Shown: positions 11,818 to 61,571, numbered from the stretch's first letter. The stretch is 64,000 nucleotides of DNA from a virus (IMGVR_UViG_3300031920_000341:144267-208266); one strand, 5' to 3'. Made by a program: numbers and translations. Notes: generated by a model not told the origin, from the letters alone.

Positions 11818-13725
11818 ATGCCAAAAGGAACTTTCGGTGGACGATTCGTAAATGTAAAAACTTCAGCTTTAGCACAAGATGATAATTTCAAGACTTCATC
11901 TGCAACAATATGGAGTACTGAACGTGTAGATAAATTGATTAATGATTATCATGATGGTTTAATTGATATAAAGGGTTCTAAAAATTCGCCATTCTTTTCT
12001 AACGATATACAATTAAGACGTTCTGGTATAACATTCGAATATACACAGGATGAGATGGAAGAACTCAGACGTTGTGCAGAAGATGTTGTATACTTCACTC
12101 AAAAATATGTTTATGTGCTTACTGATGAAGGTCGTGTTAAAATGGAACAACTTCGACCATATCAAAAAGAAATATTACTTGCATTTGTAAAGAACGATAG
12201 GAATATATTAATGGCGGCAAGGCAGATGGGTAAAACAGTAACATCTGCCATATTTATTGTATGGTATTTAATATTTAATTATGATAAGAATGCACTTGTG
12301 GTTGCGGATATTGCAGATACAACAAAAGAAGTAATTGATAAAGTAAAGGAAATTATAAATTACTTACCGTTTTATTTAAAACCAGGTATAAAGGTTAACA
12401 ACGTTAACAGTATGAGGTTTGATAACGGTTCAAGACTTATTGGTAGAAGTACTACAAAGAAAACAGGTATTGGATTTGCTATTAATCTATTATACATGGA
12501 TGAGTTTGCACACATTAATGCAGCATACTTAAAATATTTCTATCGATCGGTATATCCTACAGTAACATCATTTAAGGACTCAAAAGTAATAATAACGTCC
12601 ACACCAAATGGATTGAATATGTTTCATAATCTGTGGGTTGCAGCACTTGAGGGTCAAAGTTCCTATGTGCCATTGAGAGTTGATTATTGGCAATTGCCTA
12701 ATAGAGATGAAGATTGGAAAAATAGAACTATTGCCGATTTAGGCGGATCCCTTGAGGACTTTAAACAAGAATTCGGATTACAATTCTATGCTTCTGATGA
12801 TTTAATACTTGATTCATTAGATTTACATAAGATATATGGAATGAAATCTAAATATGTACAGAAAAATACAAACTTACTATATATTGATGGTGTAAATTAT
12901 TCAAAGTTTTTAGAATTCCATCCTGATTTTCTCGCAAAACACTTTACTCCTGATATGGAAGATTTGAAATTAGATCAAAATCAATATATTCTTTCAATTG
13001 ATACAGCAGATGGGGTAGGTCTTGATTATTCTGTAATAAATATATTTAAAGTTGCGCCATTGCCGTTATATTATTTATTTAAGAATAGATTTTCTGTAAT
13101 AAAGGATAATGATATATTTTCATTAATACAAGTTGGTAAATTTAGAACAAACACAATAAATATAAATGAACTCGCTAATGTAACAAATGCTATTGCATAT
13201 CGTTTATTTAATCAGGATAATGTAAAAATCGTTCTTGAAATGAATCATAAAGGCGATTATATTCATGATAGGTTAAAACATCATGGCGAATATTATATGG
13301 GAATGTTAATATTTAGCAAACATAGCGATAATGCAAAATTATTTGAACCAGGTGTTAAAATTGGTTCAATAAAGAAGAAAAAAGCATATTGCGATAAATT
13401 TAAATATAATTTATCAGTAGATAGAATGATAATAACCGAATATAATACCGTGCAGGAACTTGGTGGCTTAGGTAGAACCAAAGATGGTAATGGAATAAGA
13501 ACTCAATTAGGAAAAGATGACCTTGCAATGACTACAATAAATGCAAGTTCATTTTTTGAATCGCCTCAGTTTAATGAAGTGTGTGAAATTGCATACGAAA
13601 ACATTACTGATAAAGAATATCTTAATATAGTTAAAAAGGAAATAATTGATTTTAATTTGGAACTTCAGAATAGAGATTCGGGCTTAAATAAGTCTATGAT
13701 TCAGGAACTTAACTCAATGAGTTAA
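11818..13725 (+). CDS. terL: terminase large subunit
   Basis: Walker A-like ARQMGKT, Walker B LLYMDEFAHI, ATPase motif III VIITSTPNG, and a C-terminal nuclease-like region with acidic residues (LSIDTADGVGLDYSVINIF). Confidence 0.8.
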   Translation: MPKGTFGGRFVNVKTSALAQDDNFKTSSATIWSTERVDKLINDYHDGLIDIKGSKNSPFFSNDIQLRRSGITFEYTQDEMEELRRCAEDVVYFTQKYVYVLTDEGRVKMEQLRPYQKEILLAFVKNDRNILMAARQMGKTVTSAIFIVWYLIFNYDKNALVVADIADTTKEVIDKVKEIINYLPFYLKPGIKVNNVNSMRFDNGSRLIGRSTTKKTGIGFAINLLYMDEFAHINAAYLKYFYRSVYPTVTSFKDSKVIITSTPNGLNMFHNLWVAALEGQSSYVPLRVDYWQLPNRDEDWKNRTIADLGGSLEDFKQEFGLQFYASDDLILDSLDLHKIYGMKSKYVQKNTNLLYIDGVNYSKFLEFHPDFLAKHFTPDMEDLKLDQNQYILSIDTADGVGLDYSVINIFKVAPLPLYYLFKNRFSVIKDNDIFSLIQVGKFRTNTININELANVTNAIAYRLFNQDNVKIVLEMNHKGDYIHDRLKHHGEYYMGMLIFSKHSDNAKLFEPGVKIGSIKKKKAYCDKFKYNLSVDRMIITEYNTVQELGGLGRTKDGNGIRTQLGKDDLAMTTINASSFFESPQFNEVCEIAYENITDKEYLNIVKKEIIDFNLELQNRDSGLNKSMIQELNSMS

Positions 13726-55778: not shown

Positions 55779-56759
55779 ATGAAAAAAGTAAAGGCAATTG
55801 TATTATTCAGTGGAGGGCTGGATAGCATGCTCGTGGCAAAAATGTTATATGAGCAGAATATAGAAGTAATACTTTTATATATTGATAATGGTTTTGAATC
55901 TAATGATCGATCAGATGAATTTAAAATTTTTGCTAAAAGTATTAATTCTAAATTAATTATTGAAAATGTTATTGATGATTTCTGCAGTACTGTACTTATT
56001 AATCCAACAAAAGGATATGGCAAAGCCATGAATCCTTGTATTGATTGCCATGGATATATGATCAACATAGCAAGTAAGATAGCCGAGCAAGAAGGTGCTA
56101 GCTTTATTGCAACAGGTGAAGTTATCGGTCAACGTCCTATGTCTCAAACCAGAGATGCAATGTTAATGGTTGACAATTTATCAAATTCTAAAGTTCCTAT
56201 AGTTCGTCCGCTATCAGCAAAGATAATGGATGAAACTAAAGTAGAAACCGATGGTATAATAGATAGAGAAAAGTTTGAAGGCATAGCAGGAAGAACAAGA
56301 ACAAGACAAATTGAATTGGCTGAATCATTAGGATTAAATAATTATCCTAATCCAGCGGGTGGATGTTTACTTACAGAAGTTAAATTTGCTAATAAACTTT
56401 CAAATGCTTTAAAGGTAACAAAATACATAAATAGTGATGATATTACGGTTGTAAGACACGGTAGAATGTTTCAAGTTGGAAATGCTTTATTTGTGTTAGG
56501 AAGAAATAAAGAAGATAATGAAGCACTTAGGAAATTAAATAAGAATAAGTATTTGGTGATAGAACCACCAGTTGAGAGAGGTCCAGTTGCTGTAGTATCA
56601 GGTGAATTTGATTTAGATGAAGCATTAGTAATGGCTTCTATTATGTTAAGGTATTGTGATATTGATCAAAATATTGCACATCAAGTTAAGTTTACTGAAT
56701 TTATATTTGATGTATTACCAATGAGCGAAAAAGAAATTGAGGGTTATAAACTAACGTAA
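55779..56759 (+). CDS. PP-loop ATP pyrophosphatase, ThiI-like (putative sulfurtransferase / nucleic-acid-modification enzyme)
   Basis: PP-loop SGGLDS at the N-terminus; ATGEVIGQRPMSQTRDAMLMVDN...PIVRPL aligns with the ThiI GESLGQVASQT...IRPL block; PCIDCH cysteine pair. Confidence 0.55.
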   Translation: MKKVKAIVLFSGGLDSMLVAKMLYEQNIEVILLYIDNGFESNDRSDEFKIFAKSINSKLIIENVIDDFCSTVLINPTKGYGKAMNPCIDCHGYMINIASKIAEQEGASFIATGEVIGQRPMSQTRDAMLMVDNLSNSKVPIVRPLSAKIMDETKVETDGIIDREKFEGIAGRTRTRQIELAESLGLNNYPNPAGGCLLTEVKFANKLSNALKVTKYINSDDITVVRHGRMFQVGNALFVLGRNKEDNEALRKLNKNKYLVIEPPVERGPVAVVSGEFDLDEALVMASIMLRYCDIDQNIAHQVKFTEFIFDVLPMSEKEIEGYKLT

Positions 56760-59903: not shown

Positions 59904-59934
59904 AAGCCTCGGGATTCAATCTCGAGGCTTTTTT
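59904..59934 (+). terminator. strong intrinsic terminator upstream of tRNA cluster
   Basis: AAGCCTCGGGA-TTCAA-TCTCGAGGCTT followed by TTTTTTC; 11-bp stem including one GU. Confidence 0.8.
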
Positions 59935-59946
59935 CATTTATAATAT

Positions 59947-60023
59947 CGAGGTATTGGGGAGCCAGGCCACCCCGCTTGCTTTGGGAGCAAGAGAACTCGT
60001 AAGTTCGAATCTTACTACCTCGA
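59947..60023 (+). tRNA. tRNA-Pro (anticodon TGG)
   Basis: Perfect acceptor CGAGGTA/TACCTCG, D arm GGGG-(10 nt)-CCCC, anticodon stem CTTGC/GCAAG with loop TTTGGGA, 7-nt variable region, T arm GTAAG-TTCGAAT-CTTAC. Confidence 0.7.
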
Positions 60024-60064
60024 CTTAATAATTAAAACGATCTTTGACGTCTTGAAAGAAAAAC

Positions 60065-60136
60065 GCCGGTGTAGCTCAGTGGTCGAGCGGAACGCTGTTA
60101 ACGTTAGGGTCGGGAGTTCGAATCTCTCCACCGGCG
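60065..60136 (+). tRNA. tRNA-Asn (anticodon GTT)
   Basis: Perfect acceptor GCCGGTG/CACCGGC, D arm GCTC-AGTGGTC-GAGC, anticodon loop CTGTTAA, T arm GGGAG-TTCGAAT-CTCTC. Confidence 0.8.
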
Positions 60137-60151
60137 CAATACAATTTAAAT

Positions 60152-60234
60152 GCCTCCTTGGCTCAGTGGTCGACAGCGCCTGCCTTGTAAGCAGGATTCT
60201 TAGGAACGCGTAGGTTCGAATCCTACAGGAGGCT
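60152..60234 (+). tRNA. type-II (long variable arm) tRNA with anticodon TGT (nominally Thr; Ser-like body)
   Basis: Perfect acceptor GCCTCCT/AGGAGGC, Ser-like D arm GCT-CAGTGGTCGAC-AGC, perfect anticodon stem CCTGC/GCAGG with loop CTTGTAA, 14-nt variable arm ATTCTTAGGAACGC, T arm GTAGG-TTCGAAT-CCTAC, discriminator U. Confidence 0.6.
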
Positions 60235-60442
60235 CACAAACCTTTAGTGTAGATTGATCGTCTTGCTATTGGGGCAATCTTTAGGGGTAGGAGACAACAG
60301 TATTGAATTCAGTTACTGAACGTATGGATTTCTGGTAAAACAAGAATGACAAAATTATGGACAGTACCGAGATTCACTTGATTTGGGAAGGAATCAGTAC
60401 AGTGTAAGTTTAAGGCTTACGTAGATTGCCAGCGCTAAAAAT

Positions 60443-60561
60443 GAAGGGGTAGCATTAGCTGGTTATGTTCAGGGACGTCTGATCACCCGGCTGGAAAGCA
60501 ACGCGAGTAGTACGCTTGCGCTTCTACGGAAGTGATGTTGGTTCGAGTCCGGCTCCCTTCA
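60443..60561 (+). ncRNA. 119-nt tRNA-like RNA with expanded central domain
   Basis: Acceptor GAAGGGG/TCCCTTC (extendable to 8 bp), D arm GCAT-TAGCTGGTT-ATGT, canonical T arm GTTGG-TTCGAGT-CCGGC. Between D and T arms lie ~67 nt forming at least two extra hairpins (GCAACGCG-AGUAGUA-CGCUUGC and CUUC-UACG-GAAG tetraloop); no standard 7-nt anticodon loop. Packed 5 nt upstream of tRNA-Lys. Confidence 0.4.
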
Positions 60562-60566
60562 CAAAT

Positions 60567-60640
60567 AGGCCCGTAGCTCAGTTGGTCAGAGCACCTGACT
60601 TTTAATCAGGGCGTCGAGGATTCGAATTCCTCCGGGCCTA
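60567..60640 (+). tRNA. tRNA-Lys (anticodon TTT)
   Basis: Perfect acceptor AGGCCCG/CGGGCCT, D arm GCTC-AGTTGGTCA-GAGC, anticodon stem CCTGA/TCAGG with loop CTTTTAA, T arm GAGGA-TTCGAAT-TCCTC. Confidence 0.85.
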
Positions 60641-60713
60641 CATGTTTTTATTTGTAAATCAGGTTCGATTATATTTTATTCGGCATAATTTAGATATATA
60701 AAAATAAAAGCAT

Positions 60714-61571
60714 ATGACATATACTGAAATATCTAAATTAGTAAAAAATGGTATAGAATACAATGATTTAGCTAATAAATTAAATATATCAATTGATGCA
60801 TTGTATAGTAGACTAAATAGACATGGTATTAAAAAACCAAAACAAAAAACTACAATAGATAAAATATGTTTAAATTGCGGTAAAAAATTTACGGTTAAAA
60901 TAAGTAGTGATAAAAAATATAATCATAAATTTTGCAATAAATCATGTTCTGCTACATATAATAATAAAAAAAGAGGTGCGCGATCAAAAGAAACAAAAGA
61001 AAAGATATCAAATTCATTAGCAAAGAATAATAAAATAATAAAAATATGTTTAAATTGCAGTAATGAATTTTTAACAAGAAATCATAAAAGAAAATTTTGT
61101 TCACGTACATGTTCAGATAAAGGAAGTAAAAAATTTGGTTGGATTAATATGCATAAGACAATGACATTTCAAAAATGGTCTGATATTAATAAAAAGGCAT
61201 ATGCTGAAGGTAGAAATTATGTAGCAGGAGGAACAACGAAATGGTATGATTATAAGAATATTAGAGTACAAGGAACTTATGAATTAAGAACATGTTATCT
61301 TTTAGATGAAATGAAAAGAATTTTTGTAATAAATGATTGGGAATATACAAATGATAGATTTAAATATTTAGATGTAGACAATAAGCAAAGAACATATTTA
61401 GTTGATTTTAAAATTTTTAATACAGATGGAACTTTTTATTATTTAGAAATAAAAGGTTATGAAAAAGATAATGATAAACTAAAGTGGCAAGCAGTACGTA
61501 ATAAAGGATATGAATTAATTGTTTGGTTTAATAAAGATATAATAAAAAATGAGAAAAAATATTTAAAATAA
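60714..61571 (+). CDS. zinc-ribbon protein with PD-(D/E)XK-like motif (homing-endonuclease-like), downstream of tRNA cluster
   Basis: Two CxxC...C(x)C zinc-ribbon units (CLNCGKKF...CNKSCS; CLNCSNEF...CSRTCSD) and C-terminal YLVDFKIFNTDGTFYYLEIKG resembling D...E.K; same architecture as 28437-29192. Confidence 0.35.
   Translation: MTYTEISKLVKNGIEYNDLANKLNISIDALYSRLNRHGIKKPKQKTTIDKICLNCGKKFTVKISSDKKYNHKFCNKSCSATYNNKKRGARSKETKEKISNSLAKNNKIIKICLNCSNEFLTRNHKRKFCSRTCSDKGSKKFGWINMHKTMTFQKWSDINKKAYAEGRNYVAGGTTKWYDYKNIRVQGTYELRTCYLLDEMKRIFVINDWEYTNDRFKYLDVDNKQRTYLVDFKIFNTDGTFYYLEIKGYEKDNDKLKWQAVRNKGYELIVWFNKDIIKNEKKYLK

Follow-up and report, generated by a model that had tools for sequence, protein, structure and literature searches.

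The 64,000-nucleotide (nt) stretch of viral DNA IMGVR_UViG_3300031920_000341:144267-208266, which we refer to as the window, contains a tRNA gene that combines a UGU (Thr) anticodon with a long, class-II variable arm. In bacteria, according to textbooks and identity reviews, long variable arms are confined to the tRNAs for Ser, Leu, Tyr and Sec, and the original prediction for this gene, made from the sequence of the window, was right in placing a class-II frame with an anticodon from outside Ser, Leu and Tyr beyond the textbook rule. It further described the body as Ser-like, and proposed that the tRNA could insert Ser at ACA codons or act as a recoding or anti-host tRNA. We consider the gene most probably to be a working elongator tRNA that would be charged with Thr and serve the dominant Thr codon; as a single gene it appears ordinary in function, and its interest lies in the family-level pattern.

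The gene and its cloverleaf

ARAGORN calls the gene as tRNA-Thr(tgt) on the + strand at 60152-60235 (84 nt), and the Rfam tRNA model matches 60152-60234 with 61.5 bits (gathering score 29; E=2e-12), which makes the gene a member of RF00005 (Table 1). The acceptor helix, GCCUCCU/AGGAGGC, consists of seven Watson-Crick pairs by direct reading, including G1-C72 and C2-G71. The D arm, which is GCUCAGUGGUCGACAGC in the RNA, has a 3-base-pair (bp) stem (GCU/AGC) and an 11-nt loop, and the anticodon stem CCUGC/GCAGG is capped by the loop CUUGUAA, in which UGU supplies the G35 and U36 (NGU) of tRNA-Thr. Position 39 is a G, so that the gene reads U36-A-A-G-C-A41. The variable region, where the Rfam alignment places an 11-nt insertion, is AUUCUUAGGAACGC (14 nt) and can be divided as A-UUC-UUAG-GAA-CGC, that is, one unpaired base, a 3-bp stem, a tetranucleotide loop and CGC. 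The acceptor and T stems have the canonical lengths of 7/5, U8, G9 and G26 occupy the inter-stem positions, and the bases for tertiary interactions are all there (U8, A14, G15 with C48, G18G19 and the T-loop UUCGAAU). CCA is not encoded. A type-I body, with a 4-5-nt variable loop and a 4-bp D stem, is typical of tRNA-Thr but is no known identity requirement, and the window gene does not have it.

The listed details of the original prediction (a type-II UGU tRNA at 60152-60234 with perfect acceptor and anticodon stems, a 3-bp D stem, a 14-nt arm, and an anticodon loop one substitution from that of tRNA-Ser(UGA)) are all correct by ARAGORN, Rfam and direct reading. Neither ARAGORN nor Rfam proposes a competing fold with a different anticodon for 60152-60234, a point that the prediction had marked for checking. 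The free-energy fold retains the anticodon hairpin, single-sequence folding being otherwise uninformative (z = -1.2). An intron or an assembly artefact is ruled out, as the architecture is common to relatives from independent samples.

Table 1. Features of the tRNA-Thr(UGU) gene and of its surroundings in the window
Feature	Position	Strand	Description
tRNA-Thr(UGU) gene, class-II architecture	60152-60234	+	ARAGORN, Rfam tRNA, cloverleaf; 83 nt to discriminator
Acceptor stem, 5' strand GCCTCCT	60152-60158	+	pairs with 60227-60233 (AGGAGGC)
D arm GCTCAGTGGTCGACAGC	60161-60177	+	3-bp stem GCT/AGC, 11-nt loop, class-II type
Anticodon arm CCTGC-CTTGTAA-GCAGG	60179-60195	+	anticodon TGT at 60186-60188
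Variable arm ATTCTTAGGAACGC	60196-60209	+	A, stem TTC/GAA, loop TTAG, 3' CGC
T arm GTAGG-TTCGAAT-CCTAC	60210-60226	+	Rfam alignment, cloverleaf
Discriminator U73	60234	+	neither the G73 typical of tRNA-Ser nor the A73 required by LeuRS and TyrRS
tRNA cluster free of open reading frames (ORFs)	59947-60641	+	Pro(UGG), Asn(GUU), Thr(UGU), GC-rich spacer, Lys(UUU)
tRNA-Pro(UGG)	59947-60024	+	ARAGORN/Rfam
tRNA-Asn(GUU)	60065-60137	+	ARAGORN/Rfam
tRNA-Lys(UUU)	60567-60641	+	ARAGORN/Rfam
Terminator-like hairpin	59904-59930	+	strong; 12 bp and T run, 17 nt upstream of tRNA-Pro, at the cluster start
ORF-free spacer	60236-60566		between tRNA-Thr and tRNA-Lys
tRNA-like element	60443-60562	+	3' part of the spacer, about 120 nt
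HNH-type endonuclease gene	60714-61571	+	between tRNA-Lys and tRNA-Asp
326-amino-acid protein	55779-56759	+	candidate enzyme of tRNA modification, encoded 3.4 kb upstream of the cluster
Large terminase	11818-13725		aligned to five homologues

Identity nucleotides

The identity of tRNA-Thr resides in the acceptor pairs G1-C72 and C2-G71 together with the anticodon, position 73 being of small weight (Giegé and Eriani, PMC9976931). According to the same review, bacterial tRNA-Ser has conserved G1-C72 and G2-C71, C2-G71 is an antideterminant against the seryl-tRNA synthetase (SerRS) of E. coli, the major Ser element is the size of the arm, with SerRS reading mainly shape and not the anticodon, and A73 is essential for the leucyl enzyme (LeuRS) (PMC9976931). 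The identity statistics that follow are from 605 non-redundant phage tRNAs from the loci collected in this analysis. All 36 type-I tRNA-Thr(UGU) and all 26 long tRNA-Thr have both G1-C72 and C2-G71; position 73 is U in 20, A in 14 and C in 2 of the former, and U in 18 and A in 8 of the latter. Phage tRNA-Ser (n=47) has G2-C71 in 45 cases and either G73 (39) or U73 (8), while the 1:72 pair is not decisive. A73 is found in each of the 29 tRNA-Leu and 17 tRNA-Tyr, for which neither 1:72 nor 2:71 is decisive. The window gene has the two Thr acceptor pairs, and neither the G2-C71 nor the G73 of tRNA-Ser. It likewise has U73 and UGU where Leu and Tyr identity call for A73 and, for Tyr, a GUA anticodon; this A73 rule is from the same review (PMC9976931), and we reject charging with Leu or Tyr on account of U73 and the anticodon.

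As a stand-in for isotype models, we used a profile of 24 columns that lie outside every search pattern (the acceptor stem; positions 8, 9 and 26; three T-stem pairs; and position 73). The window gene scores highest as type-I Thr, at +14.2 bits, with Ser near the bottom at -14.2 bits; the body thus classifies as Thr, an outcome that the original prediction had itself named as counting against it. In a BLAST search of 50,697 phage records, the best matches over the full length come from Bacillus phages and are tRNA-Thr(UGU) genes of the ordinary 74-nt kind. Bacillus phage JBP901 has the same inner 15 nt of the anticodon arm, CTGCCTTGTAAGCAG, in its type-I tRNA-Thr(UGU); a run of 14 nt in the T arm, GGTTCGAATCCTAC, also recurs unchanged in the type-I tRNA-Thr(UGU) of Bacillus phages, and the acceptor strands are close as well. 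Compared with tRNA-Ser, the likeness consists of the 3-bp D stem, a GAGTGGTCGA-like D loop, the long arm, and the anticodon loop one base from that of Ser(UGA), whereas tRNA-Ser has G2-C71, G73 and longer arms in place of C2-G71 and U73. Judged from these nucleotides, the description of the body as Ser-like holds for its architecture and fails where identity is decided.

ACA codon use

ACA accounts for 622 of the 1131 Thr codons (55%) and 4% of all codons in the 47 ORFs of the window, and lies at conserved Thr positions, so that neither recoding nor a tolerated insertion of Ser is likely. In a single protein, the large terminase aligned to five homologues, the residues aligned with the 18 ACA codons are 38% Thr and 15% Ser, compared with 28% Thr and 5% Ser for ACT codons, and 18-43% Ser and 0-17% Thr for Ser codons. 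In five ACA columns, four or more of the homologues have Thr, and in one of these columns all five do. Codon 250 (ACA) is aligned with Ser in all five homologues, which we take to be an ordinary Thr/Ser exchange. The terminase alignment weighs against a reassignment of ACA, and wholesale insertion of Ser at 4% of codons is implausible.

Variable-arm geometry and covariation

The variable stems of the long tRNA-Thr family have a mean of 3.2 bp, with about one unpaired base on the 5' side and about three on the 3' side, which is the geometry of phage tRNA-Tyr. Phage tRNA-Ser arms have a mean stem of 5.2 bp, a mean length of 17.6 nt and one unpaired base per side; the window arm, with 3 bp and 1 + 3 unpaired bases, differs from these Ser values in both respects. 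The variable-arm hairpins of the Thr family are better than shuffled sequences in 1000 of 1000 trials.

In an ungapped alignment of nine members (the window gene and eight others), all five helices covary, with 98% of cells paired and 14 of 23 pairs changed on both sides. These include all three pairs of the variable stem, and the D-stem pairs covary too. None of 500 shuffles is as good, and no slid register comes near. The closest relatives, from a metagenome scan (loci L089-L093), have D and anticodon arms identical to those of the window gene, and variable arms of the form A-UCC-(GCAA/ACAA/UUCG)-GGA-CGC, ending in GNRA or UUCG loops, as against A-UUC-UUAG-GAA-CGC in the window. The middle pair of this stem thus shows a compensatory change from C-G to U-A, between conserved flanks.

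Relatives in other phages

Long-armed tRNA-Thr(UGU) genes were found in IMG/VR with two search patterns. The first, in which 13-28 nt separate the anticodon arm from the T loop, gives 21 contigs, all 21 of which ARAGORN calls as tRNA-Thr(tgt) of 81-92 nt; the same pattern with a normal gap gives 51 contigs, so that about 29% of phage Thr(UGU) genes with such an anticodon arm are long. The second pattern is independent, using only a class-II D arm and the CUUGUAA loop, and gives 58 contigs, 53 of them new. G1-C72 and C2-G71 are present in 51 of these 53 genes and U73 in 52, and the variable region is 10-18 nt long in 52; because the two features co-occur in 52 of 53 independently found genes, the D-arm type is coupled to the long variable region. 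A search of IMG/VR for the exact D-arm 18-mer gave a single chance match inside a coding region, with no tRNA.

With about 74 IMG/VR contigs, 94 T5-like phage records, one Rhizobium phage and one cyanophage, the family amounts to about 170 relatives. They fall into two subtypes, one with a hairpin arm of 13-18 nt, often with a GNRA-like cap, and the other with an unstructured A/C-rich loop of 10-12 nt. The window gene fits the family in its G1-C72 and C2-G71 pairs, its D arm (17-18 nt in the family, with a 3-bp stem), its CUUGUAA loop, the length of its variable region (10-21 nt in the family), its position 73 (either U or A in the family) and its place within a cluster of phage tRNA genes. 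The family is already present, unremarked, in the GenBank annotations of T5-like and other phages, and a limited literature search turned up no description of phage Thr tRNAs with long arms. A scan of bacteria and archaea (one genome each for 185,579 species) gave two matches, both on contigs of metagenome-assembled genomes, of which one (L025) resembles a phage tRNA array and the other (L026) has only one tRNA; as the pattern was built with an anticodon arm of the phage type and was run with no control for type-I genes, the scan is weak evidence of phage specificity.

Class-II-shaped phage tRNAs, mostly with a 3-bp D stem, also occur for Asn, Gly, Met, Cys, Ile, Lys, Val, Gln, Glu and Arg. 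Examples are at L037 11551-11636 (phage Bas33), at L091 6627-6716, 4900-4988, 3572-3659, 6721-6805 and 7155-7238, at L092 12351-12433, and at many IMG/VR loci. The long frame is thus a general phage phenomenon that is not confined to Thr. Nearly all discriminators of these other long tRNAs are typical of their own isotype, the exception being the long tRNA-Asn of L091, which has U73 instead of G73, and the class-II frame seems, from these nucleotides, to be a module that leaves identity intact. Type-I and class-II-shaped copies of one isoacceptor are found next to each other at L089 3882-4048 and at L091 2789-2955 and 6546-6716 (Thr(UGU) and Asn(GUU)); in these adjacent copies, the type-I tRNA has U39 and the long tRNA G39 or C39.

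T5-like phages and Bas33

The 94 T5-like records contain an 87-nt class-II-shaped tRNA-Thr(UGU), mostly annotated as plain tRNA-Thr, and related genes are found in Rhizobium phage RHph_I1_18 and Synechococcus phage BUCT-ZZ01. These genes, including those of HildyBeyeler, which is Bas33 (PMC11619597), Salmonella phage 5 and T5_ev212, are about 70-75% identical overall to the window gene, and share with it G1-C72, C2-G71, UGU, a 17-nt class-II D arm (3-bp stem) and the GGTTCGAATCC T arm; like it, they lie among other tRNA genes in phage clusters. A 14-15-nt arm with one unpaired base, a 3-bp stem, a tetraloop and 3-4 unpaired bases is a further shared feature of the T5-like and Synechococcus genes, whereas in RHph_I1_18 the variable region is 11 nt long and forms no clear stem. 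The T5-like version differs from the window gene in having A73, an encoded CCA and U39 (UAAUCA), where the window gene has U73, no CCA and G39; its hosts are enterobacteria, and the window is from an AT-rich, jumbo-type phage.

The tRNA-Thr(UGU) of the T5 reference (NC_005859, L036 668-742) is a 75-nt type-I gene. T5 and T5_ev212 (L027 1501-1587) are about 90% identical to within 3 nt before this gene and again after it, with the gene itself swapped. The type-I and long forms therefore serve the same slot in near-identical phages. On the T5-like side of the swap there is about 180 nt of extra DNA with an annotated 168-nt ORF (L027 1602-1769). The type-I tRNA-Thr(UGU) genes of T5 (T5t03) and JBP901 have the same acceptor pairs, CUUGUAA loop and codon role as the window gene, and T5t03 also shares CTTGTAAGCA with it; their D stem is of 4 bp and their variable loop of 4-5 nt, in contrast to the 3-bp D stem, 11-nt D loop and 14-nt hairpin arm of the window gene.

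In Bas33, the 87-nt form is the sole Thr tRNA; this phage also has an 86-nt class-II-shaped tRNA-Asn(GUU), and has no tRNA-Lys(UUU). The nuclease AriB of the defense system PARIS cuts the E. coli tRNAs for Lys(UUU), Thr(UGU) and Asn(GUU) as its main targets, between positions 40 and 41, recognizing U36-A-A-U-C|A41 together with a D-loop contact (Belukhina et al., PMC12409363). In that study, T7, which has no tRNAs, escapes PARIS only with both the Lys and Thr tRNAs of T5, and Bas33 is rescued by T5 tRNA-Lys alone (PMC12409363). As T5 tRNA-Lys alone suffices, we infer that the long tRNA-Thr of Bas33 works in translation and survives AriB, despite its UAAUCA, and these results would imply that it is functional in vivo.

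Interpretation

The features described above point to a tRNA that, charged with Thr, would read ACA and probably ACG too. The threonyl-tRNA synthetase (ThrRS) would recognize G1-C72, C2-G71, G35 and U36, with U73 being permissive, on a class-II frame in which the D stem has 3 bp, the D loop is enlarged and the variable arm is a short hairpin. The features that would be needed by SerRS (G2-C71, G73, a longer arm), by LeuRS (A73) and by the tyrosyl enzyme TyrRS (A73, GUA) are all missing.

Several points weigh against this assignment of the window gene as a Thr-charged elongator. Charging with Thr and activity on the ribosome are predictions from sequence, as is the charging of class-II-shaped tRNA-Thr generally. 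U73 occurs in 8 of the 47 phage tRNA-Ser and by itself does not exclude Ser, and SerRS is reported to read mainly shape and arm size (PMC9976931), so that some mis-serylation would be possible by sequence. The identity rules are mostly from E. coli and a few other species, and may not be those of the host. The profile stands in for the tRNAscan-SE isotype models, and its Thr comparison set was gathered via the anticodon arm, though those columns were left out of the scoring.

What the arm itself contributes is a separate question. The original idea of an anti-host tRNA survives only as a possible role in counter-defense: the class-II frame, together with G39 beside the cleavage site, may make the tRNA a poor substrate for host nucleases that cleave tRNAs, such as AriB, and the phage would then continue to decode ACA after the host tRNA-Thr(UGU) had been destroyed. 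We regard this role as tentative and rather unlikely. Consistent with it, the arm leaves the body 3-4 nt from the AriB cut site and beside the D loop that AriB contacts, and the window gene has G39 in place of the U39 of the AriB motif, as does the tested tRNA-Thr of T5. Locus L091 has a host-like type-I copy with U39 beside a long copy with G39, and its Asn genes are arranged alike. Three points speak against it: U39-C40-A41 is kept in many family members, the tRNA-Lys of the window keeps UAAUCA, and the Bas33 argument is our own, drawn from a paper that never mentions the variable arm (PMC12409363). The defense-resistant T5 tRNAs for Lys(UUU), Thr(UGU) and Asn(GUU) (PMC12409363), and the anticodon-loop variants (PMC10264068), are of the same isoacceptors that are clustered in the window (Asn-Thr-Lys). 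The tested T5 tRNA-Thr is type-I and not long-armed, however; the hints in the sequence that the window tRNA may resist AriB are G39 and the class-II frame, and PARIS was studied in E. coli, which is not the host of the window phage. Of the six tRNAs for which cleavage by AriB was seen in vivo (PMC12409363), four are matched by the Pro-Asn-Thr-Lys cluster of the window, although this is a post hoc observation.

A wider and more doubtful form of the counter-defense proposal is that the class-II frame on Thr, Asn, Lys, Met, Gly, Cys, Ile, Val, Gln and other tRNAs might be a phage-specific adaptation, an "armoured tRNA". The frame would alter the side of the molecule on which the D loop and the variable region adjoin the anticodon stem's 3' strand, and host immune nucleases that cleave tRNAs (AriB-type and others), or the phage's own enzymes that destroy host tRNAs, would then reject these tRNAs, while the cognate synthetases, which read the acceptor end and the anticodon, would still charge them.

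The strongest competitor to the counter-defense role, with only slightly less than an even chance, leaves the assignment as an ordinary tRNA-Thr untouched and takes the arm to have no role of its own, being a tolerated variant spread by cassette exchange. The wide variation in arm sequence, length (10-21 nt) and even hairpin presence, including the subgroup with an unstructured A/C-rich loop of 10-12 nt, would fit a neutral arm, as would the retention of U39 in many family members, the free exchange of type-I and long forms at one locus, and the homing endonucleases in these tRNA clusters. On the other hand, the compensatory changes and stable tetraloops suggest selection on the hairpin in the subgroup of the window gene, the D-arm type is coupled to the long arm in 52 of 53 genes, the frame recurs across many isotypes in phages, and it is nearly absent from the 185,579 cellular genomes (two matches, at least one of them phage-like, with the phage-type pattern and no control noted above).

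That the tRNA is a decoy or sponge for nucleases that target tRNAs, or for other tRNA-binding factors, or else a decaying duplicate, is very unlikely. Belukhina et al. raise the possibility of an inhibition of AriB through competition from overexpressed viral tRNAs (PMC12409363), the adjacent type-I and class-II-shaped Thr(UGU) genes of L089 and L091 would fit a division of labor, and a tRNA-like RNA of 120 nt lies just downstream of the window gene. A decoy would need no acceptor identity pairs, however, and the Thr acceptor pairs, the tertiary bases and a perfect cloverleaf are kept in about 100 diverse genes; moreover, the long form is the sole Thr(UGU) tRNA in both the window and Bas33, and its anticodon suits the Thr codon that the phage uses most.

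There are precedents for a class-II tRNA whose anticodon is foreign to the class, and they lend some credit to the missense role of the original prediction. The allo-tRNAs of bacteria are one such case; as reportedly described by Mukai et al. in 2017, they have 8/4 or 9/3 acceptor/T stems and Ser identity, and with stems of 7/5 the window gene is ruled out as an allo-tRNA. The nev-tRNAs of nematodes have Gly or Ile anticodons and are charged with Leu (PMC3333845). Both resemble the window gene in having a long variable arm on an anticodon outside Ser, Leu and Tyr, but they keep the identity of their class-II parent and so mistranslate or suppress, whereas the acceptor identity of the window gene, which is from a phage, agrees with its anticodon. 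A Ser-charged missense tRNA, with SerRS accepting the long arm and Ser entering at ACA through mistranslation or recoding, is the least credible of the alternatives, in spite of the class-II frame with its 3-bp D stem and C11-G24 pair, the dependence of SerRS on arm size and shape, and the one terminase ACA codon in an all-Ser column, as it is opposed by C2-G71 and U73 across the whole long-Thr family, by an arm whose 3-bp stem and three unpaired bases on the 3' side set it apart from the Ser arms that these phages have, by the negative Ser profile score, by the alignment of so frequent a codon with conserved Thr, and by the replacement of an ordinary tRNA-Thr by the long form in T5-like phages and the reliance of Bas33 on it. 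In addition, ThrRS edits Ser-tRNA-Thr.

With the window gene read as a Thr-charged elongator, the wider pattern is that phages routinely give tRNA-Thr, and tRNAs of many other isotypes, a class-II frame without giving up the nucleotides of cognate identity. For annotation, such genes resemble cases of isotype mismatch or recoding, and should not be taken as such; for synthetase biology, ThrRS and other enzymes apparently tolerate the long arm; and for phage-host conflict, Bas33 in E. coli offers a ready system for the question of the arm and PARIS.

Genomic setting

The window has a G+C content of about 30% and, according to ARAGORN, ten tRNA genes, among which the gene described here is the only one for Thr(UGU). 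Its large terminase has its nearest counterparts, at 31-36% identity, in uncultured phages 460-640 kb in size, in Sphingomonas phage PAU, in Tenacibaculum phage PTm1 and in the Prevotella Lak megaphages, so that the window is a piece of a large, AT-rich, jumbo-type phage. Beyond tRNA-Lys, the cluster is followed by the HNH endonuclease gene and then tRNA-Asp. Homing endonuclease genes are also found inside the tRNA clusters of T5 (hegA, hegC, hegD) and of Bacillus phage JBP901, and such genes are consistent with cassette-like mobility of phage tRNA genes. An exact-protein look-up of the HNH gene gave only a 4.4-kb Logan contig (L030) with that gene, from which we draw no conclusion.

The tRNA-Pro(UGG) gene is 78 nt long; its variable loop is slightly enlarged, and it scores a modest 49.5 bits with Rfam. 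Over 69 nt it shares 86% identity with the tRNA-Pro of cr111_1, a crAss-like phage from human faeces, and this was the only match in a near-identity search of the tRNA region against cultured phages. The protein encoded 3.4 kb upstream of the cluster has a PP-loop ATPase domain (ThiI/MnmA-type HUP, QueC-like) fused to an NFACT-R_2 RNA-binding domain, and is a candidate phage enzyme for tRNA thiolation or other tRNA modification; a search for syntenic loci anchored on this protein gave no match.

The spacer between tRNA-Thr and tRNA-Lys has 40-50% G+C, compared with 20-25% in the flanking genes. In the tRNA-like element of its 3' part, the acceptor stem, of 7 bp, is GAAGGGG/TCCCTTC and the T arm is GTTGG-TTCGAGT-CCGGC; the element also has a D arm and A73, and its enlarged middle contains additional hairpins, one of them with a UACG cap. 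ARAGORN calls this element only at a relaxed threshold, and it matches no Rfam family; it resembles the "tRNA-like stable RNAs of unknown function" that are annotated in the tRNA region of T5.

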